Notes: generated by a model from the sequence alone, not told the origin. Counted from the stretch's first letter, positions 31,080 to 55,043 are shown. The stretch is DNA of 64,000 nucleotides from Candidatus Omnitrophota bacterium (GCA_041651455.1 JBAZJG010000001.1:77173-141172), one strand, 5' to 3'. Numbers and translations are program-made.

Positions 31080-31113
31080 TTGACACGACATAGGTTATAA
31101 CGTAAAATATAAT
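31080..31113 (+). promoter_or_regulatory. Putative sigma70-like promoter (TTGACA-17 nt-TAAAAT, with an overlapping TATAAT) for the internal regulatory module
   Basis: TTGACA lies at 31080-31085, TAAAAT at 31103-31108 and tataat at 31108-31113, all within an 81-nt AT-rich intergenic gap. Confidence 0.35.
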
Positions 31114-31132
31114 CGTTCATACCTAGAACGTT

Positions 31133-31744
31133 ATGCCTACTAACGACAGTTTCCAAAGACCAACTGAAGACTTGCGAAATCTTCAGTTGCTGGAGGAGAT
31201 CTCCAGGGATTCCACCGCTTCCCAGAGAAAATTGTCCGAGAAGCTGGGCGTGGCGCTTGGCGTTACCAACGCGTGCCTGAAGAAGATGGCCAAGAAGGGC
31301 TATATAAAAATAAAGGGCATAAACCATAAGCGCATCTCGTATTACCTGACCCCGGAAGGATTCACCGAGAAGACGAGGCTCACCTACCATTTCCTCGAAT
31401 ATACCGTCAGCTACTACATAAACCTCAAGAAGAACCTCTCCGACAAGATGAAACACATATCGGGGCAGGGCGTAAAACGCGCCGTATTCTACGGCGCGGG
31501 CGACGTGATGGAAGTCGCGTTCGTGATATCGCATGAGGCGAATATCGAGCTGCTTGGGATAATCGACGATGACCCGCAGAAACAAGGGACGAAGAAGTTC
31601 AATTACACGATCGGCGGCCCCGGCGCGATAAAGGAGCTTAATCCCGACGCGATAATAGTCACGTCGATACGATACAAGGACAAGATAATGAAGAACATAA
31701 ACGCTGACCAGGACCTGTCGAAGGTCCCGGTCTTTTATTTTTAG
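31133..31744 (+). CDS. Winged-HTH regulator with a C-terminal Rossmann-like domain of the CoA_binding_3 / WcaJ-N-terminal type
   Basis: An N-terminal wHTH region (LSEKLGVALGVTNACLKKMAKKGYI) and a C-terminal VFYGAGDV...LLGIIDDDPQKQG...AIIVT are present, the latter resembling the N-domain of polyprenyl-P sugar transferases and PglD/NeuD. Confidence 0.45.
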   Translation: MPTNDSFQRPTEDLRNLQLLEEISRDSTASQRKLSEKLGVALGVTNACLKKMAKKGYIKIKGINHKRISYYLTPEGFTEKTRLTYHFLEYTVSYYINLKKNLSDKMKHISGQGVKRAVFYGAGDVMEVAFVISHEANIELLGIIDDDPQKQGTKKFNYTIGGPGAIKELNPDAIIVTSIRYKDKIMKNINADQDLSKVPVFYF

Positions 31745-31752
31745 GCGGAGAT

Positions 31753-32262
31753 ATGATAGCCCCGGCGCTCAATTGGTACGCGGTAAGGACGAGGTCGAAC
31801 TACGAGTTCAAGGTAAGCTGCCTGCTCGGAAAGCGTTCCGTCAATACATTCTATCCCACCGTACTGAAATGGAGCAGGAGGAAGGACAGGAAGATGAAGG
31901 TCGCAAGGCCGCTCTTCCCGGGATATCTTTTCGTCGAATGCCCTGCGAACCCGAGAGACTGGCTCGGAATAAAACAGACGGAAGGAGTCGTGAGCATACT
32001 AGGCTCGAAAGCAACGCCGCTTCCTATACCTGACGACCAGATAGAAAGCGTAAGGAAGATAGTCGAGTCGGGCATCGACCCCATACCTCACCCGTATCTC
32101 AAGGAGGGCGAGAGGGTAGTCGTCGTTGACGGGCCGATGAGGGGAGCCGTAGGGATATTCAACAGGTTCAACGATAAGAAGGGTACGCTCGTGATAACGG
32201 TAGACCTGCTCGGCAGGTCATTGGCCGCGGAAGTGGACACAAACGTAGTCGAAAGGCTGTAG
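31753..32262 (+). CDS. NusG-family paralog (UpxY/RfaH/LoaP-like operon-specific antiterminator)
   Basis: The NGN domain WYAVRTRSNYEFKV and the KOW motif GERVVVVDGPMRGAVGIF are present. The protein is 169 aa and sits at the head of a long glycan operon. Confidence 0.7.
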   Translation: MIAPALNWYAVRTRSNYEFKVSCLLGKRSVNTFYPTVLKWSRRKDRKMKVARPLFPGYLFVECPANPRDWLGIKQTEGVVSILGSKATPLPIPDDQIESVRKIVESGIDPIPHPYLKEGERVVVVDGPMRGAVGIFNRFNDKKGTLVITVDLLGRSLAAEVDTNVVERL

Positions 32263-34479: not shown

Positions 34480-35044
34480 GAAAAAATATTTGGTTCATAG
34501 GTCCTCGTATATAGACAAGGGCGTCAAGATCGGCGCCGGCACGAAGATCTGGCATTTCTGCCACGTGCTGGAGGGCTCCGAAATTGGCCGCGGCTGCAAA
34601 ATAGGGCAGAACGTAGTGATAGGCCCCGACGCGCGGATAGGCGATAATGTAAAGATACAGAATAACGTATCCGTCTACAAAGGGGTGGTCCTCGAGGACG
34701 ACGTCTTCTGCGGGCCGTCATGCGTATTCACGAACGTATTCAATCCGCGAAGCGCGGTCCCGCGCATGGACGAGATAAGGCCGACGCTCGTAAGGAAAGG
34801 CGCCTCGATCGGCGCTAACGCGACGGTCGTCTGCGGGATCACGATAGGAAGGAACGCTTTTATCGGCGCGGGCGCAGTGGTGACGAAAAACGTGCCGGAC
34901 TTCGCTCTGGTATACGGGAATCCGGCCAGGCAACGCGGATGGATATGCGAATGCGGAGAGAAACTGGTGTTCAAGGCAGGGTCTGCACGTTGCAAGTCAT
35001 GCGGTAAGAAGTATTTCAAACGCGGCCTTTTGGTTAGAAAATAA
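34472..35044 (+). CDS. Left-handed beta-helix sugar N-acetyltransferase (WbpD/WlbB-like) with a C-terminal Cys4 zinc ribbon
   Basis: Hexapeptide repeats (IGAGTKIW..., IGRGCKIGQNVVIG..., IGDNVKIQNNVSV) are followed by CECGEK...CKSCGKKY. Confidence 0.75.
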   Translation: MAEKKYLVHRSSYIDKGVKIGAGTKIWHFCHVLEGSEIGRGCKIGQNVVIGPDARIGDNVKIQNNVSVYKGVVLEDDVFCGPSCVFTNVFNPRSAVPRMDEIRPTLVRKGASIGANATVVCGITIGRNAFIGAGAVVTKNVPDFALVYGNPARQRGWICECGEKLVFKAGSARCKSCGKKYFKRGLLVRK

Positions 35045-35065
35045 AAAGAGAGGTATTTCGCGTTA

Positions 35066-35950
35066 ATGCCGAATATTACTAAAAATTGGGATGCAGATAA
35101 TAATGTGGTATCGGAAAAGACATACAGCCGTCCGGTAATCATAATCAGACCGCCATCTGGAGCATTCTATCTGGACTTAAGGGAATTATGGTCATATAGA
35201 GAGCTGGCATTTTTCTTCGTATGGCGCGATATTAAGATAAGGTACAAACAAACGATAATGGGGGCGATGTGGGCAGTATTCCAGCCATTCTTTGCAATGG
35301 TGGTATTCACGGTATTTTTCGGGAAACTTGCGAAGATGCCATCGGATGGTATCCCGTATCCGGTATTCGTATATGTGGGACTTCTCTTGTGGAATTATTT
35401 TGCATTCGGACTTGCGCATGCAAGCAACAGCATGATCAGCAATTCTAATATAATCCAAAAGATCTATTTTCCCAGACTGATAATCCCCCTTGCATCATCC
35501 CTTATAGGATTAATAGATTTTGCGGTCGCCTCGGTAATCCTGGCTATGCTAATGGTATATTATAGTTATGTACCCAATTTTAGCGGTTTGGTATATGTGC
35601 CGTTCTTGTTGCTTATTGCATTTTTTAGTTCTCTGGGTATAGGCAGTATTCTTGCGTCACTGAACGTTAAATACAGGGACGTCCAGTATATAATTCCATT
35701 TTTCATCCAAATGATGATGTTCCTTACCCCCGTGATCTATCCCGCGAGTATTGTAGGAAGCAAGTACCGGTGGATCCTTTCGCTTAATCCGATGACCGCA
35801 GTAATAGAAACGGCCAGGGCCGCGATTTTCGGTAATAGTCGTGTTGATATACACTCACTTTGCATATCAGGCGCAGTTAGCCTCTTCTTATTCATATTCG
35901 GTGTTGTTTATTTCAGGAAAACAGAAAGGTATTTCGCGGACATAATCTAA
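35066..35950 (+). CDS. wzm: ABC-2 type polysaccharide export permease (Wzm)
   Basis: Six TM helices and the motifs LDLRELWSYRELAFFFVWRDIKIRYKQT are present. The GC content drops sharply starting at this gene. Confidence 0.8.
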   Translation: MPNITKNWDADNNVVSEKTYSRPVIIIRPPSGAFYLDLRELWSYRELAFFFVWRDIKIRYKQTIMGAMWAVFQPFFAMVVFTVFFGKLAKMPSDGIPYPVFVYVGLLLWNYFAFGLAHASNSMISNSNIIQKIYFPRLIIPLASSLIGLIDFAVASVILAMLMVYYSYVPNFSGLVYVPFLLLIAFFSSLGIGSILASLNVKYRDVQYIIPFFIQMMMFLTPVIYPASIVGSKYRWILSLNPMTAVIETARAAIFGNSRVDIHSLCISGAVSLFLFIFGVVYFRKTERYFADII

Positions 35951-35954
35951 AAAT

Positions 35955-37238
35955 ATGGAAAATAACATTATTGAGATAAAAGGGGTCTCGAAAAGGTACA
36001 AAATTGGCAGAGGAGACAGATATCTGGCGCTTAGAGACAAGCTCACGTATTTTATGAACCCGTTGAATATGTTCAGGAAGGGAAAACGAAAAAGTCCAGG
36101 CGAAGAATTCTACGCGCTTAAGGATGTTAACCTTAACGTAAGGAAAGGCGAGATAGTCGGTATTATCGGAAGGAACGGTGCCGGTAAGACAACATTGCTT
36201 AAAATTATATCGAGGATTACTTATCCATCCGGGGGTGAGATAAAGATATACGGAAGAGTTGCCAGCCTGCTGGAGGTGGGAACGGGATTCCATCCCGAAT
36301 TGACCGGAAGAGAAAACGTATATTTCAACGGGTCCATCCTCGGGATGAAGAAGAGTGAAATAACCAGGAAGTTTGATGAGATCGTGGCATTTGCGGAGGT
36401 CGAGAAATTCATCGATATGCCGGTTAAGCGGTACTCAAGCGGCATGCAGGTAAGGCTTGCGTTTGCAGTTGCGGCCCATCTCGAACCCGAGATCTTGCTT
36501 ATAGACGAGGTGCTATCGGTAGGAGACATAACGTTCCAGAAGAAAAGCCTCGGGAAGATGGAGAATGTGGCGAGAGAAGGCAGGACCGTTCTTTTTGTTA
36601 GCCATAATATGGGAGCGGTGCAGAGGCTGTGCAACCGCGCCGTTTTGCTGAATAACGGTTTGGTGGTTGAGGACGGCGACGTAAACGAAGTTACGGAAAA
36701 ATATATGAGCTACGGCTTGAATAAGGCCGGGGAAAGGATATGGAGCGAAGAGAACTCCCCCGGAGATGATGTTGTTCGGTTGAGAAGAATTTGTGTAATG
36801 AACGCGAAGGGCGAAATTAAAGTGGAGTTCAATACACACGAAGGGATATTTGTTTCGGTTGAATATGCGGTCTTAAAAAACAACTATCCGTTAAATACTC
36901 TTCTCTATTTCCTCGATGAAGAGGGGATTACGAAATTCGTTTCCATGGATAATCTTGATTCCCCATGGAAGGATACGGTAAGGCCCGCAGGATTATACAG
37001 GTGCACATGTGAAGTCCCTCCTGACCTGTTGAACGAAGGCACTATAAGGATAAATGTAATCGTAACAACGAGCCCGTATAACCTACACGCGAGGGACTCT
37101 GATGTGCTCGTCTTCAAGGTTATAGACGACATGAGCAACAGCGGGGTAAGGGGGAATTACCCGCGTGAATGGCCTGCCGCGGTAGTAAGGCCGAGGCTTA
37201 ACTGGAAAGTGGAGATGTTGAACCATGGAAAAGGATAA
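35955..37238 (+). CDS. wzt: Polysaccharide export ABC transporter ATP-binding protein (Wzt) with a C-terminal glycan-binding domain
   Basis: Walker A GRNGAGKTT, the signature YSSGMQVRLAFA and a Walker B are followed by a C-terminal extension of about 180 aa. Confidence 0.85.
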   Translation: MENNIIEIKGVSKRYKIGRGDRYLALRDKLTYFMNPLNMFRKGKRKSPGEEFYALKDVNLNVRKGEIVGIIGRNGAGKTTLLKIISRITYPSGGEIKIYGRVASLLEVGTGFHPELTGRENVYFNGSILGMKKSEITRKFDEIVAFAEVEKFIDMPVKRYSSGMQVRLAFAVAAHLEPEILLIDEVLSVGDITFQKKSLGKMENVAREGRTVLFVSHNMGAVQRLCNRAVLLNNGLVVEDGDVNEVTEKYMSYGLNKAGERIWSEENSPGDDVVRLRRICVMNAKGEIKVEFNTHEGIFVSVEYAVLKNNYPLNTLLYFLDEEGITKFVSMDNLDSPWKDTVRPAGLYRCTCEVPPDLLNEGTIRINVIVTTSPYNLHARDSDVLVFKVIDDMSNSGVRGNYPREWPAAVVRPRLNWKVEMLNHGKG

Positions 37239-37980
37239 GGACTCTATAATATTGGTCACCTGCGGCGATTCGATAAGTATGCCGCGCTCCTTCGACGGTA
37301 TCCGTTGCGGTCATACTTATTCCGAGATAGTAAAGAAGAGTCTACAGGAAAAATATAAGGATAAAGAGGTATTTCTGTTCAACCGAGCGCTGGGAGGGGA
37401 GAGTATAGCTACCCTTTTCAGGATATTCCAGACCGACATACAGTATTTTGGAAAAGACGGAAGAAAGATACTTATATTGAGCGCAGGAATAGTAGATTGC
37501 GCGCTCAGGCCAATACCTCTTTGGTTGAAAAGAAAGATAGGCGTCATGCCTTCCGTTGTAAGAGAACCGATTATAAAATTCCTGCATAATAATAGAGCCA
37601 GGTTATTCGGATTGGGGCTTAAATGGAGGGTGACGTCTCCCGGAAGGTTCAAGCGCATATACTGCAATATACTTGCTGAAGCCTCCAAAGCATTTTCGAA
37701 AGTGTATGTCTTTACCATTATGCCGACGACTAAAAAGACAGAGAAGCATTCGCCCGGACTTACGTCAAGTATCGACCTCTATAACAGTATAATAAGGGAT
37801 ATAGTGAGCGTGCTTGCTCTCCCTAATATAGAGCTGATCGACATTAATGAGATGATAAACGAGGAAAAATATGACGTTGAAGATGTGGTTAACAATTCAG
37901 ACGGAATCCACCTGACCGTAAAAGGGCACAGAGTATTTGCGGATAAAATACTGGAAAGAGAAAAAAATGAGATCTTGTAA
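37225..37980 (+). CDS. SGNH/GDSL hydrolase family protein (candidate glycan esterase/O-acyltransferase)
   Basis: Block I VTCGDSISM and block V SDGIHLT are present. Confidence 0.6.
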   Translation: MEKDKDSIILVTCGDSISMPRSFDGIRCGHTYSEIVKKSLQEKYKDKEVFLFNRALGGESIATLFRIFQTDIQYFGKDGRKILILSAGIVDCALRPIPLWLKRKIGVMPSVVREPIIKFLHNNRARLFGLGLKWRVTSPGRFKRIYCNILAEASKAFSKVYVFTIMPTTKKTEKHSPGLTSSIDLYNSIIRDIVSVLALPNIELIDINEMINEEKYDVEDVVNNSDGIHLTVKGHRVFADKILEREKNEIL

Positions 37981-38968
37981 AGCCAAGACGATACACGAGA
38001 GATTGACAGGTTTTGACAAGTTCAGCCGTTCCCTGGAACCTCCGTTCCCGAAAGACATGCTTATTGAGCTAACAAACGCATGTAACAATAAATGCCTATT
38101 TTGCGCGAACAGGAAAATGACAAGAAAAACAGGTCATATCAGGATAGGTATTCTGGATAAGGTGTTGTCTCAGGCATATGCTCTCGGGTGCCGGAACGTG
38201 GGTTTTTATACTACCGGCGAACCTTTTATATCAAGCAAACTGCCGCAATGTATCTCAATGGCAAAAAAGAAGGGATTTACGTACATTTATTTGACAACGA
38301 ACGGTGTTCTGGCGACTCCCTCGCGCGTACGAGAAGTGATCGAGGCGGGCCTGGACAGCTTGAAGTTCTCGATAAATGCGGGGACAAGAAAGACGTACAA
38401 AGAGATACATGGTAGGGACGATTTTGACAAAGTAATAGCAAACCTTAAATATGCCTCGGAGTACAGGAAGAAAGTGTCCTCGCCTTTGACCATTCATGTT
38501 TCATACGTGATCACACGAAAAAACGAGAGAGAGCAGAATCGGTTCCGTGAATTGGTAACGCCTTTTGCGGATGACGTGTTCTTCCTGAACGTGAGCAACC
38601 AGGGGGGCATGATGCCCGAGATAAAGAAAGATCTTGTGCCTGAAAATCCGAATAGGAAATTTACGTATTCAAAAAAAGTGCCGTGCAGTATGGTATTCAA
38701 CAGGTTGCATATTACCCACGAAGGGTACGTGTCTGCTTGTTGTGTCGATTTCCAGAATTACTTGATAGTGGCAGACCTTAACAAAGTTGACCTATGGAAA
38801 GCTTGGCGTAGCAGGGTATTTAAGAAAATTAGAAGACTTCATCTGGAGAATATGCTACAAGGGACTCAATGTTATAATTGCGTTTACGACAAGCAGGATA
38901 CGGTCAAGCCTTTGTTGCCTGAATACGCTGCGGCACCAGATAACATGTCAAAAAAAGGAAGGATGTAA
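37967..38968 (+). CDS. Radical SAM / SPASM(twitch)-domain protein
   Basis: The motif CNNKCLFC (Cx3Cx2C) is followed by a C-terminal Cys-rich region CSMVF...SACCVDF...CYNC. Confidence 0.72.
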   Translation: MRSCKAKTIHERLTGFDKFSRSLEPPFPKDMLIELTNACNNKCLFCANRKMTRKTGHIRIGILDKVLSQAYALGCRNVGFYTTGEPFISSKLPQCISMAKKKGFTYIYLTTNGVLATPSRVREVIEAGLDSLKFSINAGTRKTYKEIHGRDDFDKVIANLKYASEYRKKVSSPLTIHVSYVITRKNEREQNRFRELVTPFADDVFFLNVSNQGGMMPEIKKDLVPENPNRKFTYSKKVPCSMVFNRLHITHEGYVSACCVDFQNYLIVADLNKVDLWKAWRSRVFKKIRRLHLENMLQGTQCYNCVYDKQDTVKPLLPEYAAAPDNMSKKGRM

Positions 38969-38969
38969 A

Positions 38970-40304
38970 ATGAATATAGATATTATCATACCTGCCTATT
39001 CGGAAACCGGAAAGGTATATAGGATAAACAGCGTTTTGATCAAGGGCAGGCCAATAATAGATTACACGCTTGAAGCCGCCATTAACGCGCCGTATATCAG
39101 GGGTATATATCTGATAACTGATGACAGCAGCATGCTTGAAAGATACGGATCATTAAAAAAGATAAAGGTGGTCATGCATAAGCATGAGGAAAACGGCGAT
39201 AATATAAGACTTAAGACGATACTGTCAAGCGCGCTTAAAAAGATAAAAGGCGCGCGGCCTGATCTGGCGGTGTTGTTATTAACGTCGGCACCCTTAAGAG
39301 ATGCGGGAATATTAGAATCGGCACTCAATTATGCCAGGTCGTTTGAGGAATATGACAGTATCGTCGGCGTGACAAGGTCGAGGAAATCGAGATTCGGCGT
39401 ATTGAACGTAGGCGCCAATGGGAAGACGGATTATAGCCAGGACAGGACATGTATCAGTTATACGGGCAAGGGGCAGCATTACACCGCCGCGGTAAACGGC
39501 GCACTGTATATCGTGAAGACAAATAGGCTTGGAAAGTTGAACGAAATGCTGTTATCTAGTAGAACCTACGGGTTTGAAATGGACGAAGAGGCAGGTAAGG
39601 ATATAGACTCTTCGGCGGATGTGGCGGTAGCAGAAGCTTTTCTTTCAATGAAAGAGGAACGCTTCGGACAGCATGCAAGGGGAAGGTTTAATGTGCAGCG
39701 CCTTTATATTCATGACGACAGGCAGATGGGGATAAACAGGAATGTCCTTGATGCCATGGCATACGAACGCCATTTTATGAGATATCGGAAATTCTTAAAG
39801 CGCATTTCCGCGTCGGATGACGTACTTGACATTGCATGCGGGAGTGGCTACGGCAGTGAAATATTGGCTTCGAAAGCCAGGTCGGTGACCGGAGTGGATT
39901 GCGACCCGGTCACCATAAAATATGCAGGTCGCCATCATAAGAAAAAAAACATAAATTTCAAAACATCGGCGATTGAAAAATTCAATCCCAAACGAAAGTT
40001 CGACAAAATAATCAGCGTGGAGACGATCGAACACCTTACCGACCCAGAGGGATACATGAAGAAAGCCAGGGGATGGCTCAAGCCCGGAGGACAGATATGG
40101 TTGACATGCCCGCTTTCTGGAATATGTCGGCAGGAAACCGAAAATCCTTTCCATATAAGTGAAATAACGTATGAAATGCTTAAGAGGATAATGAGGAAGT
40201 ATTTTAAGACTACAAGCTTCTATCGACTATCCGGAAAGAAAATATTCTCGGGTGACACCCTGAACAATAAGACGGCGTATATAGTCGCGAAAGGAGCTTT
40301 ATAA
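38970..40304 (+). CDS. Bifunctional fusion of an N-terminal cytidylyltransferase-like nucleotidyltransferase with a C-terminal class I SAM methyltransferase
   Basis: The N-terminus IIIPAYSETGKVYRINSVLIKGRPIIDYTLEAA has an NTP-transferase fold. The C-terminus has MTase motif I VLDIACGSGYGSEILA. The track ORF start at 38787 overlaps the upstream gene and is rejected; the chosen ATG at 38970 has the RBS aaggaagga. Confidence 0.6.
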   Translation: MNIDIIIPAYSETGKVYRINSVLIKGRPIIDYTLEAAINAPYIRGIYLITDDSSMLERYGSLKKIKVVMHKHEENGDNIRLKTILSSALKKIKGARPDLAVLLLTSAPLRDAGILESALNYARSFEEYDSIVGVTRSRKSRFGVLNVGANGKTDYSQDRTCISYTGKGQHYTAAVNGALYIVKTNRLGKLNEMLLSSRTYGFEMDEEAGKDIDSSADVAVAEAFLSMKEERFGQHARGRFNVQRLYIHDDRQMGINRNVLDAMAYERHFMRYRKFLKRISASDDVLDIACGSGYGSEILASKARSVTGVDCDPVTIKYAGRHHKKKNINFKTSAIEKFNPKRKFDKIISVETIEHLTDPEGYMKKARGWLKPGGQIWLTCPLSGICRQETENPFHISEITYEMLKRIMRKYFKTTSFYRLSGKKIFSGDTLNNKTAYIVAKGAL

Positions 40305-41638
40305 TGAAGGATATAGTCAAGTCACCTATACGGACTGACGATAATGATATGGTGCTGTCCTTGCCGATGACTGTACATATCGAACTGACATCTTCGTGTT
40401 GTTTCACATGTAGGCACTGCTATAATTTTTGGAGAAAAGAAAAGATCAACCACGTGTTCATGACAGAGGAAGGCCTCGATAAGATATTGGATGAGCTAAT
40501 AAAGAACGGGGTGATGCATGTGATATTTACCGGGGGAGAGCCTTTCATGAACAGGAAGGTGCTGTTGCGTGGTATCAAAAGGCTGAAAAGCGCCGGTTTA
40601 AGTTCGACATGCAATTCAACACTGGCCGTTTTCAACTCGATAGAAGAACTTAAGGAACTGAAGGAGGCCGGATTAGAGCACATTCTGACATCACTCAACT
40701 CATGCAGCGAAGAGACGAACGATTATCTTGTTACTAAGCGCGGCGCTCAATCTAAGATCATCAAAGGGATGCAGAACGCGATCTCAGCCGGGATACGCAT
40801 AAGCGTGAATATGATTATCTCGGAAAGTAATATAAATGATATTTACAGGACAGGCGAACTTGCAAGCAAGCTTGGAGCGAAGAAATTTTTCGGAACGAGG
40901 GTGGTACCCCATCTTTCCGGAAAGATAGAAGACCAGAAGGAATTTCTTATCTACCAAAAAGAAGCCAGGGTCATACTGGATGAGCTTATAAAGGTTCAGA
41001 ATGATTTTGCTATTCAGGTCGGGACGCTCGTCCCATTCCCATATTGCTTTGTATTCAAGGAGGAAGACAGACAAAAGTATGCCCGGTTCTATTCGCACGG
41101 TTGCCCCGCGGGGAATAAGATGATATCCATAAACGCAAACGGGGAAGCGCACGCCTGCGTCCACGAAAAACAGGGTTATGGGAACATATTGGAGATCGGA
41201 TTGAGGTCTGCCTGGAAGAACATGGAAAAATGGAGGTCCGGCGAGTATTTTCCTTCTGTTTGTAAGGAATGCGAGCTATTTGATGAATGCAATGGAGGCT
41301 GTCGCCTTGCTACTTTGGCATACAAGGGGGATATTTCATCGACTGACAACCTGAGGGTAGGATGGGCAAAAGGGAAAAAGAGAGTTGAAGATTCTGGCGA
41401 GCGGATGATATTGAAAGCAAGATACGCCGTTCCGCAAACCCTACGTTTTAGGAAGGAGAACGGGTTCTCGGTGGTAGACCGTTTTGGATCGGAAGTCCTA
41501 TGTGTGAAGGACAGGATCGCGAAAGTCCTGATGGATCATAAACTAAAGAAAACCGCATTTATCCCAGAAGAAGAAGGCATCTTGGACATAGAGACGTTAA
41601 AAACGCTCATAAATGAAAAACTTCTGGTGAAGGCATAA
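40304..41638 (+). CDS. Radical SAM / SPASM-domain protein
   Basis: The motif CCFTCRHC (Cx3Cx2C) is followed by a C-terminal SPASM-like Cys cluster CVHE...CKECELFDECNGGCR. Confidence 0.72.
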   Translation: MKDIVKSPIRTDDNDMVLSLPMTVHIELTSSCCFTCRHCYNFWRKEKINHVFMTEEGLDKILDELIKNGVMHVIFTGGEPFMNRKVLLRGIKRLKSAGLSSTCNSTLAVFNSIEELKELKEAGLEHILTSLNSCSEETNDYLVTKRGAQSKIIKGMQNAISAGIRISVNMIISESNINDIYRTGELASKLGAKKFFGTRVVPHLSGKIEDQKEFLIYQKEARVILDELIKVQNDFAIQVGTLVPFPYCFVFKEEDRQKYARFYSHGCPAGNKMISINANGEAHACVHEKQGYGNILEIGLRSAWKNMEKWRSGEYFPSVCKECELFDECNGGCRLATLAYKGDISSTDNLRVGWAKGKKRVEDSGERMILKARYAVPQTLRFRKENGFSVVDRFGSEVLCVKDRIAKVLMDHKLKKTAFIPEEEGILDIETLKTLINEKLLVKA

Positions 41639-41655
41639 CAAAAGGATATTCAAGA

Positions 41656-42339
41656 ATGAAGATAAAGCATTATGCCCTCATTCCCGCAAAGAAGGATTCA
41701 AGCCGGTGTAAAAACAAAAACTGGAGGAAATTCAGTAAAAATTGCAACCTTGTTGATTACACCGTAAAGTCGGTACCCGGGAACATGTTTGAGAAAATAA
41801 TTGTATCGACAGATAAAATAGACTACCATCCTCCGCGGCATGTATTGAAACACCTGAGAGACAGGAAATTGTCGAGAAAGGGTTCGTGCGTAAAGGACCT
41901 GATACGAATAATTATACGCGAATACGGATTAAGGGATGAGGACTATCTTTGGCTTCTTAATCCTACTTCGCCGTTTAGGGAAAAAACCGACTTTACTAGA
42001 ATTGCGGATTATATTGGCAGGTATAAGCCGGATTCGGTAATCTCGGTTATAGAAATACACCCATTCATATGGAAAGGGGCCAGCCCTTTGTTTGAGACGA
42101 GAGGGAAACGCAGGAATACGGAGAGTTTTAAGGAAAGGTATTCTGTTGAGAACGGCATGTTCTATGTGATGAATATCGGTTATTTCCGTTCTAAAAGGTC
42201 GTGGTATGGAAAGCGGTCAATGCTGTATAAGCGGCACGGTATCCTGTCGTTTGTGGACATCGATACGGAAGAGGAATTTATAGAAGCAAGAAAACTGACC
42301 GGAATAAAGGACTTCAAAAACCGGGGGAAAAGAGAATGA
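41656..42339 (+). CDS. Acylneuraminate/ulosonate cytidylyltransferase family protein (CMP-sugar synthetase)
   Basis: ALIPAKKDSSRCKNKN and NPTSPFR match the NeuA/KdsB/PseF-type motifs. Confidence 0.68.
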   Translation: MKIKHYALIPAKKDSSRCKNKNWRKFSKNCNLVDYTVKSVPGNMFEKIIVSTDKIDYHPPRHVLKHLRDRKLSRKGSCVKDLIRIIIREYGLRDEDYLWLLNPTSPFREKTDFTRIADYIGRYKPDSVISVIEIHPFIWKGASPLFETRGKRRNTESFKERYSVENGMFYVMNIGYFRSKRSWYGKRSMLYKRHGILSFVDIDTEEEFIEARKLTGIKDFKNRGKRE

Positions 42340-43205
42340 TAAGATTTAAGGACCTGAAGGATGTCTACCTTATAGGAGAAATAGGCATAAACCATAATGG
42401 CGACCTTCAGATTGCAAAGAAACTAATTGACGCTGTATACGCATGCGGATGGAAATGTGTGAAGTTTCAGAAGAGGAATCCGGATGTATGTGTTCCAGAA
42501 AGTCAGAAAAATACAAAGCGTGACACGCCTTGGGGAATGATGACATACCTGGAATACAAGAAACGAACGGAGTTCGGCAGGAAAGAATACGATTATATCG
42601 ACAAATATTGTAGGGAAAAACCGTTGAATTGGACGGCGTCAGTTTGGGATCTAGGCAGCTTTAAATTCATGAAGAAGTACGATCTTCCCTTTATTAAGCT
42701 GCCTTCCGCCAAGATAAATGACATGGAACTGGTAGAGGCTGTTGCGAAGTCCGGGATACCGGTGCTTGCATCGACCGGTATGAGCTCATTGGGCGAAATC
42801 GACAAGCTCGTTAGTATCCTTAGGAAATATTCGTGTGAATTCGCTCTTATGCATACGAATTCAAGCTACCCCACCCCGTTAGAAGAGCTTAACCTGAATT
42901 GCATCGTTACGCTTAGAAAAAGGTATGACTGTGTTATAGGTTATAGCGGCCATGAGTATAACGTGGAACCTACCGTTTACGCGTGCGTTCTGGGAGCCAA
43001 GATAATCGAAAGGCATATAACCCTTGATCATACGATGTGGGGGACAGACCAATCATCAAGCCTTGAAGTGGGCGCCATGTACCTCCTCAATAGAAGAGTG
43101 CAGCATATCGATATGATGCTGGGGAGCGGAATCAAGAAGATAAGTGCAAGCGAAAGAAAAATTATCAATAAGCTGAAGCATAACCTTTGCGAAAGGAGAA
43201 AATAA
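42336..43205 (+). CDS. NeuB-family ulosonic acid (sialic-acid-type) synthase, a short form lacking the SAF domain
   Basis: YLIGEIGINHNGDLQIAKKLID is the NeuB signature; 289 aa. Confidence 0.72.
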   Translation: MIRFKDLKDVYLIGEIGINHNGDLQIAKKLIDAVYACGWKCVKFQKRNPDVCVPESQKNTKRDTPWGMMTYLEYKKRTEFGRKEYDYIDKYCREKPLNWTASVWDLGSFKFMKKYDLPFIKLPSAKINDMELVEAVAKSGIPVLASTGMSSLGEIDKLVSILRKYSCEFALMHTNSSYPTPLEELNLNCIVTLRKRYDCVIGYSGHEYNVEPTVYACVLGAKIIERHITLDHTMWGTDQSSSLEVGAMYLLNRRVQHIDMMLGSGIKKISASERKIINKLKHNLCERRK

Positions 43206-43864
43206 TGTTGGGGCCGGATTTCAATAAACAATACGAATATGAGAACAGTTTCTACCTTACAGCGCCCATTAACAGGATTAGCAAATTTGTCACTCATCTT
43301 GATCTTTTCAGGAGGATTTCCGGATTGTCAGGAGAGATCGTGGAATGCGGCGTATTCAAAGGAGTGTCGCTGTCCAGATTGATTAAATTCAGAGCATTGT
43401 TTGAAAATCCGCAAAGTAGAAAGATAATAGCATTTGATACCTTCGGAGATTTTCCGGAAGCAAAATACAAGGCTGATGTCAAAAAAAGGCGACAATTTAT
43501 CTCAGAAGCAGGAAGCAAAAGCATAAGCAGGGATGAATTGATCTGCATCCTGAAAAAGCTGGATCTCTACCAGAACATCGAGCTCGTGGCAGGCAATATA
43601 TTGAAAACGGTGCCGCGCTACGTTTCAAGGAACAGACATCTGAAGATAGCCTTGCTGCATATAGATGTTGATCTGTATGAAGCGACGGATATATGCCTAA
43701 AGGAACTGTACCCGTTGGTCGTAAAGGGCGGGATAGTGGTATTGGATGATTACGGCGCCTTTCCCGGAGCTAATAAAGCCATTGACGATTATTTTGTGAA
43801 TAAGAAGGTCAGAATTAAAAAATACCCTTATTCCAACGCCATATCATATGTGCAAGTCGATTGA
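43205..43864 (+). CDS. TylF/MycF-family SAM-dependent O-methyltransferase
   Basis: IVECGVFKGVSLSRL and the C-terminal VVLDDYG are present, and the TAATG overlaps the upstream stop. Confidence 0.62.
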   Translation: MLGPDFNKQYEYENSFYLTAPINRISKFVTHLDLFRRISGLSGEIVECGVFKGVSLSRLIKFRALFENPQSRKIIAFDTFGDFPEAKYKADVKKRRQFISEAGSKSISRDELICILKKLDLYQNIELVAGNILKTVPRYVSRNRHLKIALLHIDVDLYEATDICLKELYPLVVKGGIVVLDDYGAFPGANKAIDDYFVNKKVRIKKYPYSNAISYVQVD

Positions 43865-44379
43865 GAAAGGGCGGTGATAAAATGAGAATACATAAGTATT
43901 ACGATCTTAAGAAGGTAAAATTGATAGTATATGATTTCGACGGTGTTTTTACCGATAATAAGGTCATTCTTATGGAAGACGGGAAAGAAGGTGTTATAGT
44001 AAACAGGTCGGATGGGCTTGCGGTATCAATCTTCAAGAAAATGGGTATTCCTCAAATTATATTGTCTACCGAAAGAAATCCCATAGTTAAGGCCAGATCG
44101 AGGAAACTTGGCATACCAGCCTTGACCTGCGTTAACGATAAGAAGAAGGATCTCTCTTCATATTGCAGGAAACTCAATATCCCGCTGCATTCCGTGGCTT
44201 ATATCGGTAATGATATCAACGACTATGAAGCGATGTTATGCGTGGGATTCCCGATAGCGCCGGCGGATGCGAACAGCCGCATAAAAGGCATAGCGGAAAT
44301 AGTAACTAAAACACGAGGCGGGGAAGGAGTTGCCCGAGAGTTACTCGATATATTTACCCGCGGAATGGGAGTATGCTGA
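43861..44379 (+). CDS. HAD-IIIA phosphatase of the KdsC family (ulosonate-phosphate phosphatase)
   Basis: IVYDFDGVFTD and GNDINDYEAM are present; the protein is about 165-172 aa. Confidence 0.7.
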   Translation: MRKGGDKMRIHKYYDLKKVKLIVYDFDGVFTDNKVILMEDGKEGVIVNRSDGLAVSIFKKMGIPQIILSTERNPIVKARSRKLGIPALTCVNDKKKDLSSYCRKLNIPLHSVAYIGNDINDYEAMLCVGFPIAPADANSRIKGIAEIVTKTRGGEGVARELLDIFTRGMGVC

Positions 44380-46193
44380 AATACGACATGGGAACAATGA
44401 GGTGTGCGGACGGCTCTTCGTTGATTTATGAAGTCGATAAGACCGCATCAATGATCGCGCTTAGGATATCACAAGAGCTTAAAAAAGATCCGATCTTCGG
44501 AGAATTAGATGAAAGGTTGCCAGGCGGGTGGTCCCTGTTTTATTTTCAGATATTAATAAAAGATAAAATATATCCGTACATACGACAAGCACACGTCATC
44601 CGCTGGTATATCGGAAACGGGATAACCATACCTGATAAAGAGAAGACCGTAACGATACCGCAATGCGGTATACTTACAGTTTTAAAAGATCATTGGGATT
44701 TCGATGATGTACCTATACGGTACGGAAGAGGTCCGCTTTCCGGATGGGATAAGGCGCTGAAAAGAACGGTAAAACGGTACAGGGATGGTTTGCTCAAGAC
44801 CTGGGAAGCGTACATATTCGGTCAGGCAAAGGAAAATGCGAAGCAGGACCTCGCCGGGACCGCCCGCACCATAGCCTGTCATTATGCTGAAGGATTTGAT
44901 CCTAACAGGCGAAATGACTTGAACTGGTATGCCGGTAGCGGGATAGACGCGAAAGACGTTTTGATATACTTTGATTGTCCGGATAATATTACCGGTGGTC
45001 CTATCGGCAAGGAAACTATCGACAAACTTGAAAGCAAAGGTTTTAGATGCGTGGCTCTCAAAAATGGCGTCGTAAATAGCATGCATTCGGCATTTTGTAA
45101 AGTACCATGTATACACCCGGACAGATATCTAAAAGCAGGCCGTGTGCGCAACCCGGTTACGGATTGGCTTGTTGAGGAAGGGAACGATCTCATCCGGAGC
45201 GTAGAATATTGGAGGTCATTTTATAAGGAATTTGGCATAAAAGTGAATTATGTAGCGGAAGAGAACCCGTATGTGAACATTCCGCAAAGGATAGCTTTCG
45301 ATGTTGATGGCGAAAACGGCGGCCTTCTTGCAGGCAAGCAAAGGTCGGAGGTGCCGTTCATATACCGTTACCTGAATGGGTATCACCCCAAGCATATATA
45401 TTTTACGTGGAATAGGAGATCCGCGTTAAACATTGAGCAAAAACATGAGAATGTAGGCAGGATAGTGGTTACCGGTTATCCTTATGGCACGCTGTGTCCG
45501 GCGAAAGATGACGCTTCATTATTGAGATCGAGAGGAGCCAAATTCATAATAGCGCTTTTTGATAATATACACGGTTCCGATTATATATATTCAACCGATG
45601 AAATGAGGCGATATTATGAGGCCTTCCTGTCGTTTATGATTGAGGACGAAACGACCGGGATAATAATAAAATCAAAGAAACCGCTTGTTATCCAAAAACT
45701 GCCTGAGATACACACGCTTCTCGAAAAGGCGGTTGCAACAGGTCGGTGCATAAGGCTTGACAGGGAGATTGGCAGGCTTCCTTTTGACGCATCCAGGAAT
45801 GCCGATCTTGCCGTGGGAGTTGGCATATCATCACCTGTGATAGAAGCGGTGATAGCCGGTTGCAAGGGGGTTCATTATGACATCACGCATTATAAAAAGC
45901 ACGTGTTCTATGAATGGGGATACGAGAAAATTATCTTCGATGATATATTGAGGCTTATTGATGCGATAAAAAGATTCAAGAAAGAGCCGTCATCGGAGCC
46001 GGGACTCGGTGATTGGTCCGGGCATATCGAGGAGCTCGACCCGTTTTGCGACAGGAAAGGAGGAGAACGGATGGGGAGTTATATGAAAATTCTCTTCGAA
46101 TCATTCAGGTCAGGCAAAGGTCGTGTGACTGCCGTAAACGACGCGGACAGGACTTATTCTCGCGAATGGGGCGATTATAAGATTGTAAAATGA
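44373..46193 (+). CDS. Hypothetical 606-aa protein; possibly a glycosyltransferase (candidate capsule-type ulosonate transferase), fold unassigned
   Basis: It is a long ORF with good coding appearance inside the operon, but no motif was recognised with confidence. Confidence 0.3.
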   Translation: MLKYDMGTMRCADGSSLIYEVDKTASMIALRISQELKKDPIFGELDERLPGGWSLFYFQILIKDKIYPYIRQAHVIRWYIGNGITIPDKEKTVTIPQCGILTVLKDHWDFDDVPIRYGRGPLSGWDKALKRTVKRYRDGLLKTWEAYIFGQAKENAKQDLAGTARTIACHYAEGFDPNRRNDLNWYAGSGIDAKDVLIYFDCPDNITGGPIGKETIDKLESKGFRCVALKNGVVNSMHSAFCKVPCIHPDRYLKAGRVRNPVTDWLVEEGNDLIRSVEYWRSFYKEFGIKVNYVAEENPYVNIPQRIAFDVDGENGGLLAGKQRSEVPFIYRYLNGYHPKHIYFTWNRRSALNIEQKHENVGRIVVTGYPYGTLCPAKDDASLLRSRGAKFIIALFDNIHGSDYIYSTDEMRRYYEAFLSFMIEDETTGIIIKSKKPLVIQKLPEIHTLLEKAVATGRCIRLDREIGRLPFDASRNADLAVGVGISSPVIEAVIAGCKGVHYDITHYKKHVFYEWGYEKIIFDDILRLIDAIKRFKKEPSSEPGLGDWSGHIEELDPFCDRKGGERMGSYMKILFESFRSGKGRVTAVNDADRTYSREWGDYKIVK

Positions 46194-46196
46194 GGA

Positions 46197-47375
46197 ATGC
46201 ATATGAAACGGATTAATGTGCTTGTGGTCGGTGCGGGTATGTATGTTTGCGGAAGGGGTACAGAGACATTCGGGACCATCATCCCGTCGCTGAACGAATC
46301 AAACAAGTCCGGCGCTTTAGGAAAGATCTTTATAGCCGGAAGGAGCATCTCCGGAATAAGGGCCGCGAAAAAGAAGATTGCCTCACTAAATAAGGCTATG
46401 GGGACCGCGCCGGACCTATCTTTCTATGCCGACGTCAAGAACGGTCCAAAAGGTTATATAAGGGCAATACAGGAGATGCCGAGGCCGGCCTGCGCCATTA
46501 TCGCGGTTCCAGACAACATCCATAAGGATGTAGCAGAGGCTGCGTTGTTGAATGGTATGCATGTGCTGGTCGTTAAACCGTTTGTTGAAACGGTAAAGGA
46601 TGCGAAGGATCTCGAGAAGACGAGGAAAGAACAAGGGCTTTACGGGGCGGTGGAATTCCATAAAAGATACGATGATGCCAACCTGAAATTAAGGGATGCC
46701 ATATCACAGGGTGCTATAGGAGACCCGTTATATTTCCTTGCTGAATTCAGCCAAAGAAAGAGCATGCCGGAAAAAGTATTCAGAAGATGGGCGGCTTCTA
46801 CGAATATTTTCCAGTACCTTGGGATCCATTATGTGGATATGGTCCACTTTGTCACCAAGGCAAAACCGGTACGGGCAATGGCTACCGGCCAGTCGTATTG
46901 GCTGAGATCAAAAGGCATTGATACGTATGATGCCGTTGAAGCCGTTACCGAGTGGAAACTGGAGAACGGAAAAAGATTCGTTTCGCATATACTTACCAAC
47001 TGGATAGACCCCGAGAAGACATCGGCCATGTCAGACCAGAAGATAAAGGTCATAGGCACGAAAGGAAGGTTCGAGTCAGATCAAAAGGCCCGCGGAGTTA
47101 CTATGATTACCGATAAGAATGGCATAGAAGAGATAAATCCGTATTTTTGCAGCCAGTACGGTCCATATGGGAATGTGAGATTCCGCGGCTACGGAATAGA
47201 CAGTATAAAGACCTTTCTCAACGATTCTATAGCGATAGAGTACGGCAGCAAAACCATTGAAGAGCTTGAAAGGGAAAGGCCTACTTTCAATAACTCGCTT
47301 ATACCCACAATGGTGCTTGAAGCTGTTAATACAAGCTTGAAATGCAACGGTAAATGGGTTGAGATAGCCAGATGA
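46197..47375 (+). CDS. Putative NAD(P)-binding oxidoreductase (Rossmann N-terminus)
   Basis: INVLVVGAGMYVCGRG resembles a dinucleotide-binding fold; the rest is unassigned. Confidence 0.35.
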   Translation: MHMKRINVLVVGAGMYVCGRGTETFGTIIPSLNESNKSGALGKIFIAGRSISGIRAAKKKIASLNKAMGTAPDLSFYADVKNGPKGYIRAIQEMPRPACAIIAVPDNIHKDVAEAALLNGMHVLVVKPFVETVKDAKDLEKTRKEQGLYGAVEFHKRYDDANLKLRDAISQGAIGDPLYFLAEFSQRKSMPEKVFRRWAASTNIFQYLGIHYVDMVHFVTKAKPVRAMATGQSYWLRSKGIDTYDAVEAVTEWKLENGKRFVSHILTNWIDPEKTSAMSDQKIKVIGTKGRFESDQKARGVTMITDKNGIEEINPYFCSQYGPYGNVRFRGYGIDSIKTFLNDSIAIEYGSKTIEELERERPTFNNSLIPTMVLEAVNTSLKCNGKWVEIAR

Positions 47376-48415
47376 AAAAGATGTTCGTTCCGCACGAGCG
47401 GTTATCTGTATTTATAAAGAAGGTACTCCTAAATGCCGGGGTACGCGAAGATGTTGCGTATCATGTCAATGAAGGGTTAGTACAAGCGTCACTAAGGGGG
47501 GTCGATTCGCACGGTATAAGGCTATTTCCGCATTATATGGCGTCGGTAAAAGCGGGCAGGATAAATCCCGATCCCGAATATAAGTTCGAGAGGACCTCGG
47601 CCTCTACCGGAAAGTTCGACGCAGACCACACCTTCGGGCACGCCGCCGGCATAGAGTCGGCAAGGAAGGCGGTAGAGCTCGCCAAGGAAGCGGGGACGGG
47701 CAGCATAGCCGTGTTCAATTCGACCCACTTCGGCGCTGCCGCATATTTCACGCTCGAGATAGCAAAGCAAGGGATGATAGGGTTAAGCTTCACTCATGCG
47801 GATTCGCTGATGAAGACATATGCGGGCAAAAGGGCGTTCCTCGGGACGAACCCGATATCCTTCGCCGCGCCGGTGGAGGGCGAAGAACCGTTCTGCCTCG
47901 ACATGGCCACGACGCTTTATAATTTCAACAAGATAAAGCAGCTGAGGGAGCGCAAGCATCCCGCACCTGAAGGCGTAGGCGCGGATACGGAAGGCAATGA
48001 GACGACGGATGCGGATAAGATATCGATGCTGCTTCCAATGGGCGGATACAAAGGATACGGCCTTAGCCTGATGGTGGAGGTGCTTTGCGGGATACTTACC
48101 GGCATGCCATACGGCCCTAATATATCGAGCATGTTCAAGGCGCCGTTGTCGCAGAAAAGGTTCCTCGGACATTTTATCTGCGCGATGAGGATAGACTGTT
48201 TCCAGGAAGAAAAGGTCTTTAAGCGGCGCATGGCCGAATTGTTGAATGAACTGAGGAATGAGCCTCCCATGGAGAAAGGGGTACCGGTGCAGGTGGCGGG
48301 AGACCCGGAGAAGAAGGCCGCTTCGGAAAGGACGAAAGAAGGGATACCGATGGCCGCGCCGGAAGCGGAGGCCTTCATGAAGCTATCCGCCGAATACGGG
48401 GTGGAATTCATATAG
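47372..48415 (+). CDS. Ldh2-family (malate/L-lactate/sulfolactate dehydrogenase type 2) oxidoreductase
   Basis: PMGGYKGYGLSLMVEVLCGILTG matches the Ldh_2 family. The GC content returns to the high level here. Confidence 0.68.
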   Translation: MKKMFVPHERLSVFIKKVLLNAGVREDVAYHVNEGLVQASLRGVDSHGIRLFPHYMASVKAGRINPDPEYKFERTSASTGKFDADHTFGHAAGIESARKAVELAKEAGTGSIAVFNSTHFGAAAYFTLEIAKQGMIGLSFTHADSLMKTYAGKRAFLGTNPISFAAPVEGEEPFCLDMATTLYNFNKIKQLRERKHPAPEGVGADTEGNETTDADKISMLLPMGGYKGYGLSLMVEVLCGILTGMPYGPNISSMFKAPLSQKRFLGHFICAMRIDCFQEEKVFKRRMAELLNELRNEPPMEKGVPVQVAGDPEKKAASERTKEGIPMAAPEAEAFMKLSAEYGVEFI

Positions 48416-51828: not shown

Positions 51829-51829
51829 T

Positions 51830-55032: not shown

Positions 55033-55043
55033 AAGGGCTTTAT

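Follow-up and report, generated by a model that had tools for sequence, protein, structure and literature searches.

The locus described here raises the question of how a compact block of low-GC genes came to lie within a surface-glycan operon of otherwise host-like composition. It is found in a stretch of 64,000 nucleotides from Candidatus Omnitrophota bacterium (GCA_041651455.1, JBAZJG010000001.1:77173-141172; hereafter, the window refers to this whole stretch, and positions are counted from its first letter). The block, which we call the cassette, measures 12.5 kb and is formed by 12 co-directional genes (35066-47375) for sugar-acid synthesis and polysaccharide export, between the gene for a WbpD-like hexapeptide acetyltransferase and a gene of the Ldh_2 family (hereafter Ldh2). 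An earlier note on this DNA had proposed that an export-plus-ulosonate module was acquired horizontally and added to a pre-existing locus. A foreign composition and a distribution incongruent with the flanks support the horizontal acquisition, but the module does not appear to have been added between adjacent WbpD-like and Ldh2 genes; the likely course of events, in our judgement, is that the low-GC block replaced a homologous module by recombination in the flanking genes, as a coupled unit of ulosonate genes and a Wzm/Wzt exporter.

The low-GC cassette, placed by the earlier note at about 35050-47400, is borne out by the composition and codon-usage profile that the note had suggested as a check, with a significant shift relative to the variance across the window. 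In bins of 1 kb, the GC content falls from 0.53-0.57 to 0.41-0.48 over positions 35,001-47,000 and then rises again. The 12 cassette genes have a GC of 0.416-0.468 (mean 0.438), a GC at third codon positions (GC3) of 0.457-0.556 (mean 0.503) and a GC at first codon positions (GC1) of 0.451; the corresponding values for the remaining 40 genes (3483-63805), which include the housekeeping genes miaB, miaA, hflX, hrcA, grpE, dnaK, dnaJ and accD, are 0.500-0.602 (mean 0.548), 0.610-0.786 (mean 0.722) and 0.537. The two sets of genes show no overlap in the range of either GC or GC3, and the cassette means lie 6.2 (GC) and 5.6 (GC3) standard deviations below those of the other genes (Mann-Whitney p ~2e-7). 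Relative synonymous codon usage (RSCU) correlates with that of the housekeeping genes at r = 0.96 for the glycan flanks, but only at r = 0.54 for the cassette. Amino-acid usage differs as well (FYMINK residues, 0.336 in the cassette versus 0.293 in the rest; GARP residues, 0.229 versus 0.264) and, together with the shift in GC1, this extends the compositional signal beyond synonymous sites. A two-breakpoint likelihood scan placed the change points after positions 35004 (support 34932-35037) and 47538 (support 47385-47619), twice the log-likelihood difference being 432; thus, the low-GC tract reaches slightly into both flanking genes. The joints themselves are as seamless as had been claimed, with a 21-nt spacer between the stop of the hexapeptide acetyltransferase gene (35044) and wzm on the left, and a 4-nt ATGA overlap at 47372 on the right, such that the block lies inside one long operon.

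What relatives carry at the same site is central to the argument. A locus on a 639 kb contig of a 55%-GC relative (L003) has flanks closely related to those of the window (WbpD-like protein, 88.6% identical; Ldh2, 90.5%; B12-dependent radical S-adenosylmethionine (SAM) enzyme, 87%; methyltransferase, 84%; cytidylyltransferase, 85%; GT2 fusion, 92.6%). Between its WbpD-like and Ldh2 genes, this locus codes for homologues of the cytidylyltransferase-methyltransferase fusion (50%), the cytidylyltransferase (54%), the NeuB-like synthase (72%), the HAD phosphatase (61%) and the GFO/IDH/MocA oxidoreductase (hereafter GFO; 63.5%), and for a 601-aa homologue (45.5%) of the 606-aa protein of the cassette. 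It also has a short-chain dehydrogenase and a B12-dependent radical SAM enzyme as extra genes, and is without wzm, wzt, SGNH or TylF genes. The L003 module is host-like in composition (GC3 0.57-0.69; RSCU r = 0.93 to the host flanks). A second 55%-GC relative (L080), from the sample that gave the window's ENA contig, has flanks 88-93% identical to those of the window and a module (GC3 0.68-0.74) whose GT-B and GFO proteins are 50% and 63% identical to those of the cassette. As in L003, wzm, wzt and SGNH genes are absent from L080. In L082, a legionaminic-acid-type pathway occupies the same slot. At least four module types are thus found upstream of Ldh2, those of the window and L008, of L003, of L080 and of L082. 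As observations in their own right, L080 (1-4061) and L081, from samples that also gave window-type contigs, carry a third module variant of host GC, with pyruvate-kinase-like and Sulfotransfer_3-like genes between GFO and Ldh2, and an Omnitrophota-type locus of 53.5% GC (L006; GCA_041652795.1, JBAZGQ010000043.1; Ldh2 and GFO proteins 83% and 74% identical to those of the window) is labelled Dehalococcoidales at NCBI, a mismatch that reflects either a binning error or cross-phylum transfer.

A second lineage with the cassette (L008-L013) is represented in assemblies from JGI, ENA and Logan, with the same gene order and at the same site as far as the contigs reach: all 12 genes are found in L008 and L010, and the 3' part in the shorter contigs of the group. 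The GC step recurs there (cassette GC3 0.45-0.53, flanks 0.68-0.78), and in L010 a hexapeptide acetyltransferase gene lies directly upstream of wzm. Across L008, L003 and L080, flank proteins are 84-93% identical to those of the window. L009, which has the cassette, and L003, which has the alternative module, are 95.6% identical over 6.3 kb of the downstream flank, including genes that the window lacks. Since the flanks of L009 and L003 are alike and their modules different, module type is incongruent with flank relatedness.

Both ends of the imported tract could be placed within the flanking genes, at ~34,965-35,004 and ~47,490-47,538 by identity and GC together. On the left, the acetyltransferases of the window, L010 and L003 are near-identical up to the C-terminal tail, which is EKLVFKAGSARC in both the window and L010, and EKIDLKTGHAKC in L003. 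On the right, the 5' end of the window's Ldh2 gene, over ~40 codons, has a GC of 0.44 (0.57 in L003 and 0.53 in L010) and a nucleotide identity of only 62-68% to L003 and L010, after which identity rises to 0.86-0.92. The imported tract therefore contains pieces of the WbpD-like and Ldh2 genes, which argues for a syntenic donor locus. In L010 the GC step coincides with the GFO/Ldh2 boundary; the right crossover differs between the two lineages that carry the cassette.

The timing of the exchanges can be approached through synonymous divergence (dS) between the window and L010, the median being 0.43 in the 12 cassette genes (range 0.30-0.61) and 0.68 in six genes of the flanks (range 0.57-0.89; p = 0.0012). 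Because cassette dS is below flank dS, the cassette copies are younger than the split of their hosts. Within the cassette, a tract in which L008 and the window are near-identical (dS 0.01-0.02) has an identity of ~87% between L008 and L010, whereas outside it L008 and L010 are indistinguishable (100% identity), and each has an identity of ~83-94% to the window. The pattern recurs in a separate assembly, L009, and the aligned sequences point to a very recent exchange of 3.4 kb between the lineages. A strain-level recombination tract is also seen outside the cassette, in the high-GC flank: a JGI strain (L002) shows 163 mismatches to the window, 131 of them within 49400-53400, a region that covers the genes for the B12-dependent radical SAM enzyme, the methyltransferase and the cytidylyltransferase, and the beginning of that for the GT2 fusion.

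We propose that the block is one allele of a hypervariable slot for ulosonic-acid synthesis plus export, in a surface-glycan operon headed by an UpxY-family gene. It would have been imported from a lower-GC lineage (~44-47% GC) with a syntenic locus, most likely another member of the Omnitrophota, through a double homologous crossover, with one exchange point within the 3' end of the gene for the WbpD-like acetyltransferase and the other within the 5' end of Ldh2. A resident module of host composition, with the same core chemistry, would have been displaced; six or seven genes would have been swapped for diverged homologues, and wzm, wzt, the SGNH gene, at least one radical SAM/SPASM gene and a TylF-type methyltransferase gene would have been gained. 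The block would still be exchanged among related lineages.

Simple insertion of the 12 kb export-plus-ulosonate module between formerly adjacent WbpD-like and Ldh2 genes would agree with the seamless joints, and wzm, wzt, the SGNH gene, the second radical SAM/SPASM gene and the TylF gene are indeed without an L003 counterpart, so that part of the cassette is a net gain. We nevertheless regard a simple insertion as quite improbable, since the flanking genes are adjacent in none of the relatives examined, six or seven of the cassette genes already have homologues at this site in L003 and L080, the closest 55%-GC relatives, and the breakpoints lie inside the flanking genes; the import included the 5' end of Ldh2 and the 3' end of the WbpD-like gene, so that the donor had the same flanks. 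Replacement in the reverse direction, with the low-GC cassette as the older resident and the modules of host composition in L003 and L080 as the later arrivals, also seems improbable. The site is polymorphic both ways, the cassette is found in two lineages with a dS of ~0.4, and GC3 in the L003 module is slightly under that of its flanks, all of which could be accommodated by a reversed direction. However, the codon usage of the L003 module is much closer to that of the host than that of the cassette (r = 0.93 and 0.54, respectively), the L080 module has a host-like GC3, the lineages had split before their cassette copies diverged, and a long-resident block would be expected to drift to the composition of its host.

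It is very unlikely that no transfer took place and that the low GC arose in place, for instance through selection for AT-rich codons tuning expression. Polysaccharide-specific genes are often the lowest in GC of a genome (PMC3715488), but the shift in the window extends to GC1 and amino-acid usage, the homologues with the same job in L003 and L080 have the composition of the host, identity falls from 84-93% in the flanks to 45-72% exactly where GC drops, the distribution of the cassette is incongruent with the flanks, and GC is normal in the second variable region of the window, at 53-60 kb. A chimera of a 55%-GC and a 44%-GC organism, joined at conserved genes during metagenome assembly, has to be considered, as the source is a metagenome-assembled genome (MAG), assemblers can cross over in conserved genes such as those that contain the breakpoints, and a related strain (L080) is present in the same sample. 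We consider such a chimera very unlikely, because the joints were reproduced in independent assemblies, the left in one and the right in two: a megahit contig from ENA (ERZ27247363) spans both the right (L001, 100%) and the left (L077, 99.99%) joint, and a JGI contig from another sample, representing a different strain, covers the right joint at 99.2% and without gaps. Moreover, a 230 kb MAG contig at NCBI also has the cassette proteins, identical proteins being named Candidatus Omnitrophota bacterium (MAG) there, and the second lineage shows the cassette in place in JGI, ENA and Logan assemblies.

A classical genomic island, with an integrase or transposase and a tRNA or att-type repeat at the borders, is not supported. 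No domain of an integrase, a transposase or any other mobility protein was found in the 12 cassette genes, no tRNA gene in the 64 kb, only short direct or inverted repeats at chance level at the borders, and similarity to plasmids or phages only in the core of the ABC ATPase. In the absence of mobility hallmarks, homologous recombination is the parsimonious route.

As to the donor, the nearest relatives without the cassette, in a large protein database, carry a conserved wzm-wzt-SGNH triad (62-77%, 67-75% and 43-48% identical to the window genes, respectively). The contigs with the triad are Omnitrophota-like and have a GC of 37% (L074), 41% (L076), 45% (L079, uniform) and 50% (L078); in L074, L076 and L079, where the contigs reach further, the triad adjoins legionaminic-type nonulosonate genes, and in L074 it follows a gene for a helix-turn-helix (HTH) regulator 65% identical to that of the window. 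The codon usage of the cassette correlates best with that of a 47%-GC relative (L007; r = 0.82; for L079, r = 0.71). The donor was probably an unsampled lineage of intermediate GC (~44-47%), most likely of the same phylum.

Several observations weigh against replacement by a module from such a donor. Scans with Wzt of GTDB representative genomes and JGI metagenome contigs returned at most 51% full-length identity and no co-located cassette genes, although the source lineage itself is also absent from the results of both, and, apart from the two lineages with the cassette, no match exceeds 75% identity for Wzt or 48% for the GT-B protein. The cassette itself is probably composite: the closest relatives of the 5' triad and of the 3' half are found in different locus types, those of the 3' half being modules of the L003 and L006 types. 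The compositional baseline is the variance within the 64-kb window rather than genome-wide variance, and the direction of replacement is based on composition alone; the somewhat lower GC3 of the L003 module relative to its own flanks means that this module may itself be an older import. With regard to function, all scores of the pathway proteins against nonulosonate equivalog models are under the curated cut-offs, the match of the window's Wzt to Pfam Wzt_C (PF14524) is weak (18.8 bits, cut-off 30.4, over profile positions 2-135 of 143), and the biochemical roles, the nature of the sugar and the reading of a cap are all inferred.

The features of the cassette and its surroundings are listed in the table. 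The gene content given by the earlier note, from wzm through the 606-aa protein, was found to be correct by domain searches; the GFO gene that closes the cassette had been omitted.

Coordinates of the cassette genes, putative recombination zones and operon head in the window
Feature	Coordinates	Strand	Basis
Probable operon head: promoter-like site, MarR/HTH_24 regulator (31133-31744), UpxY-family NusG paralogue (31753-32262)	31080..32262	+	
Putative left recombination zone, final ~25-35 codons of the gene for the WbpD-like hexapeptide acetyltransferase (34472-35044)	34932..35044	+	GC change point
wzm, ABC-2 permease of polysaccharide ABC exporter, 294 aa	35066..35950	+	PF01061, 69 bits; 5 hydrophobic segments; GC3 0.468
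wzt, ATPase with probable C-terminal carbohydrate-binding domain (CBD, ~260-427), 427 aa	35955..37238	+	PF00005
SGNH/GDSL hydrolase, 251 aa	37225..37980	+	PF13472, 37 bits
Radical SAM/SPASM enzyme 1, 333 aa by gene callers (mechanical open reading frame start 37937)	37967..38968	+	PF04055, PF13186
Putative inter-lineage exchange tract in the cassette, ~3.4 kb	38900..42350	+	L008 99-100% identical to window
Cytidylyltransferase-like N-terminal domain fused to class I SAM methyltransferase, 444 aa	38970..40304	+	PF08241 and related, E 2e-16
Radical SAM/SPASM enzyme 2, 444 aa	40304..41638	+	PF04055, PF13353, PF13186
CMP-ulosonate-type cytidylyltransferase, 227 aa	41656..42339	+	PF02348, 32 bits (above the 22.6 cut-off)
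NeuB-family ulosonate synthase without SAF domain, 289 aa	42336..43205	+	PF03102, 215 bits
TylF-type sugar O-methyltransferase, 225 aa	43187..43864	+	PF05711, 77 bits
KdsC/KDN-9-P-phosphatase-like HAD phosphatase, 172 aa	43861..44379	+	NF058599, TIGR01670
Conserved GT-B-fold protein, 606 aa	44373..46193	+	AlphaFold2 model, pLDDT 87.7, pTM 0.88
GFO/IDH/MocA NAD(P) oxidoreductase, 392 aa, last cassette gene	46197..47375	+	PF22725, PF01408; GC3 0.532
Putative right recombination zone, first ~40-55 codons of the Ldh_2 gene (47372-48415)	47372..47540	+	GC and identity step

The core of the predicted pathway is formed by three proteins, and the combination of a NeuB without a SAF domain, a phosphatase of the KdsC/KDN-9-P type and a cytidylyltransferase suggests that a ulosonate is made via a phosphorylated intermediate. 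The NeuB-like protein (best solved relative 6ncs, 290 aa) scores below the NeuB and PseI equivalog cut-offs (TIGR03569, 223 bits, cut-off 400), and its scores support assignment at the family level only. The HAD phosphatase scores 104.5 bits against NF058599 (KDN-9-P phosphatase; cut-off 180) and 97.9 against TIGR01670 (KdsC subfamily; cut-off 107), and is 59-61% identical to the proteins of L003 and L006. The cytidylyltransferase is PseF-like (E 4e-11, under the PseF equivalog cut-off), and the N-terminal domain of the fusion gave a weak match to PF02348 (20.8-22.5 bits, just under the cut-off) and one to TIGR03584 (PseF; E 5e-10); the precomputed domains of the L003 fusion include PF02348. 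The NeuB homologue would condense phosphoenolpyruvate with a phosphorylated sugar, the KdsC-like enzyme would strip the phosphate, and the cytidylyltransferase would then yield a CMP-ulosonate. Tailoring of the sugar would fall to the two radical SAM/SPASM enzymes, the methyltransferase fusion, the TylF-type enzyme, the GFO oxidoreductase (63-74% identical to the proteins of L003, L006 and L080) and the SGNH enzyme. The first radical SAM/SPASM enzyme is only ~20% identical to that of L003, and the second has no homologue in the L003 module.

The 606-aa protein would be the candidate transferase. Its model matches UDP-GlcNAc 2-epimerases, GT4 enzymes and the polysialyltransferase 5wcn in Foldseek searches of the PDB (E 2e-9 to 1e-6, ~11% identity), and there is a weak match to TIGR04417 (PFTS); the protein is a candidate for a nucleotide-sugar transferase and may instead be a 2-epimerase-like enzyme. 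It belongs to no Pfam family and has no sequence match in the PDB; among 64 aligned sequences of the family (the window protein and 63 homologues) the sole Pfam matches are of the kinase/P-loop NTPase type (best, APS kinase), in single members each. Homologues adjoin GFO and Ldh2 in all relatives, and no relative between 83% and 48% identity was found in the large protein database. By the names of homologues, a protein of ~600 aa is also present in Brocadiaceae, Saganbacteria, Margulisiibacteriota, Nitrospirae and Thermodesulfovibrionales, its context having been inspected in Omnitrophota-like loci only.

The AlphaFold2 model of Wzt (pLDDT 87.5) aligns over 418-423 columns to the full-length Wzt of 7k2t and 8dku (E 8e-39, 30-32% identity), across both the nucleotide-binding domain and the C-terminal beta-sandwich, and scores better with these than with chains of the nucleotide-binding domain only. 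The nucleotide-binding domain itself matches that of A. aeolicus Wzt with E 3e-65, the best PDB relatives of the ATPase being A. aeolicus Wzt, TarH and TagH, and PF14524 is in the precomputed domain lists of many Wzt homologues at 52-63% identity. The identity of Wzm is 93% to the proteins of L008 and L010, and falls to 62-77% for those of the low-GC contigs (L074, L076 and L079). The SGNH/GDSL protein, probably an O-acyl esterase or transferase, has homologues of 43-48% identity after wzt in L074, L076, L078 and L079. No Wzx- or Wzy-like protein, nor any other further polytopic membrane protein, was seen among the locus genes checked, which fits an ABC-transporter-dependent pathway. A 20-nt motif, AAAAAGAGAGGTATTTCGCG, occurs in copies 90% identical at 35043-35062 and 35919-35938, just upstream of the wzm and wzt starts; a role in ribosome binding or coupling common to both genes is possible, as is chance.

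Wzm/Wzt would export the lipid-linked glycan, and the CBD of Wzt would read a terminal cap. CBD-type Wzt proteins recognize a terminal methyl, methylphosphate or Kdo cap, which is required for export (PMC9445017). We propose that exporter and tailoring genes move as a unit because a Wzt of this type must match the cap. A bolder version, which we put forward as a speculation more likely to be wrong than right, is that the cassette is a self-contained cap-and-reader unit, in which an undescribed nonulosonic acid, tailored by radical SAM enzymes, O-methylated and chain-terminating, is paired with a matching Wzt CBD that licenses export; the unit would circulate as a surface-identity module among Omnitrophota of differing GC, perhaps through selection by phage or host contact in ultra-small, possibly host-dependent bacteria.

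All genes of the locus are on the + strand, and are tightly packed or overlapping. The best promoter-like site, a sigma-70-like match (11/12) at 31080-31108, overlapped by a second (10/12) at 31085-31113, precedes the HTH gene, whose product is MarR_EPS-like; the UpxY-type NusG paralogue scores 108.3 bits against NF033644 (cut-off 100), which suggests that a specialized antiterminator drives an operon of more than 30 kb. The operon head is followed by WbpE-, WbpB- and WbpD-like genes upstream of the cassette, and Ldh_2, the B12-dependent radical SAM enzyme, a methyltransferase, cytidylyltransferases and glycosyltransferases are encoded downstream. No strong + strand promoter or terminator was found at either joint of the cassette, the counts being near the shuffle expectation.

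Other features of the window are recorded here for reference. The block at 44373-53182 is conserved across many Omnitrophota (L003, L006, L007 and L082), in the order ~600-aa GT-B protein, GFO, Ldh_2 and B12-dependent radical SAM enzyme, then methyltransferase, cytidylyltransferase and GT2-cytidylyltransferase fusion, with extra genes inserted in some loci. It is followed by the second variable region (53182-60404), of normal host GC, in which the relatives' versions of a 616-aa protein reach only 58-67% identity. A fused ABC_membrane/ABC_tran exporter is found there in L003, L009 and L011, and the window instead has genes for an HMGL-like protein, a cytidylyltransferase, a B12-dependent radical SAM enzyme and a 556-aa protein; L009 and L011 carry both exporter types, whereas in the window Wzm/Wzt is the sole type over the ~16 kb visible downstream. 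A 756-aa protein (20086-22356, + strand) with an N-terminal hydrophobic segment and a weak LptD_N/OstA-like match (21 bits), encoded immediately before the nucleotide-sugar genes, may be an envelope component. At the start of the window (1-3360, + strand) lies a second low-GC gene (GC 0.407, GC3 0.34, RSCU r = -0.53 to the host), for an anti-phage STAND NTPase similar to Avs2 of AVAST type 2 (PADLOC Avs2, E 4.6e-89; NCBIfam NF041813, 276 bits, under the cut-off of 1000, the reading frame being truncated by the window start and the match beginning at model position ~348). This gene is probably another foreign island.

Exchange of serotype regions via shared end genes has been described for the galactose-initiated O-antigen clusters of Salmonella enterica (PMC3715488), for Leptospira rfb (PMC9736851) and for the surface-polysaccharide loci of Enterobacteriales (PMC7305143). 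The Salmonella clusters have lower-GC segments, with GC declining toward the serotype-specific genes and crossovers in the shared ends (PMC3715488). Like O-antigen and capsule serotype regions, the locus has conserved end genes and a variable, lower-GC middle, GC falling in blocks toward the specific genes, crossovers in shared genes, alternative modules at one site, incongruence with the flanks and no mobility genes; every testable feature of a serotype cassette exchanged by homologous recombination is found for this locus. It differs from the O-antigen examples in its host, an uncultivated member of the Omnitrophota, in that the rest of the glycan locus is at host GC and only one slot is foreign, and in that the swapped unit is an ABC exporter with a ulosonate pathway rather than Wzx/Wzy with glycosyltransferases.

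Kdo-capped Wzm/Wzt export is exemplified by K. pneumoniae O12; in the window, the cap, if present, might be a nonulosonate rather than Kdo. As in WzmWzt of A. aeolicus (7k2t, 8dku; PMC9445017) and in E. coli O9a, an ABC-2 permease is paired with an ATPase whose model has a C-terminal beta-sandwich, and methyltransferases and a ulosonate pathway, both known cap chemistries, are encoded alongside. Unlike in these systems, the putative CBD is under the Wzt_C threshold and no terminator of the WbdD or WbbB type was identified in the window. The pathway itself can be compared with nonulosonic acid routes that pass through phosphorylated intermediates, as for KDN in Bacteroides thetaiotaomicron and Neu5Ac in vertebrates. 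Shared with those routes are a NeuB-family synthase, a KdsC-like HAD phosphatase (with KDN-9-P phosphatase as the best model) and a CMP-transferase, grouped together, and, as in 6ncs, the NeuB homologue is without a SAF domain. In contrast to known nonulosonate pathways, two radical SAM/SPASM enzymes, the cytidylyltransferase-methyltransferase fusion, TylF and GFO accompany the core, and scores are below the equivalog cut-offs. We found no characterized nonulosonate pathway in the literature with radical SAM/SPASM, cytidylyltransferase-methyltransferase fusion, TylF or GFO members, and nothing on Omnitrophota nonulosonate loci or on radical SAM tailoring of nonulosonic acids.

Cassette swapping via conserved flanks is well known in enterobacteria and pneumococci. 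New here are the host phylum, a population-level snapshot of several alleles together with a fresh recombination tract, and an uncharacterized chemistry. The co-inherited set for a ulosonic-acid derivative (a SAF-less NeuB, a phosphatase, two radical SAM/SPASM enzymes, the fusion and a GT-B family outside Pfam), together with a predicted CBD-type Wzt, offers a tractable target for enzymology and for the co-evolution of exporter specificity and cap chemistry. For the curation of MAGs, the locus illustrates that a sharp GC step within a contig can reflect real biology rather than misassembly. The diversification of surface polysaccharides by the swapping of cassettes of foreign composition thus also operates in the uncultivated phylum Omnitrophota, where exchange is ongoing, as seen in the near-identical 3.4 kb tract shared between lineages and in the occurrence of at least three alternative modules in close relatives, a single sample containing two of these.

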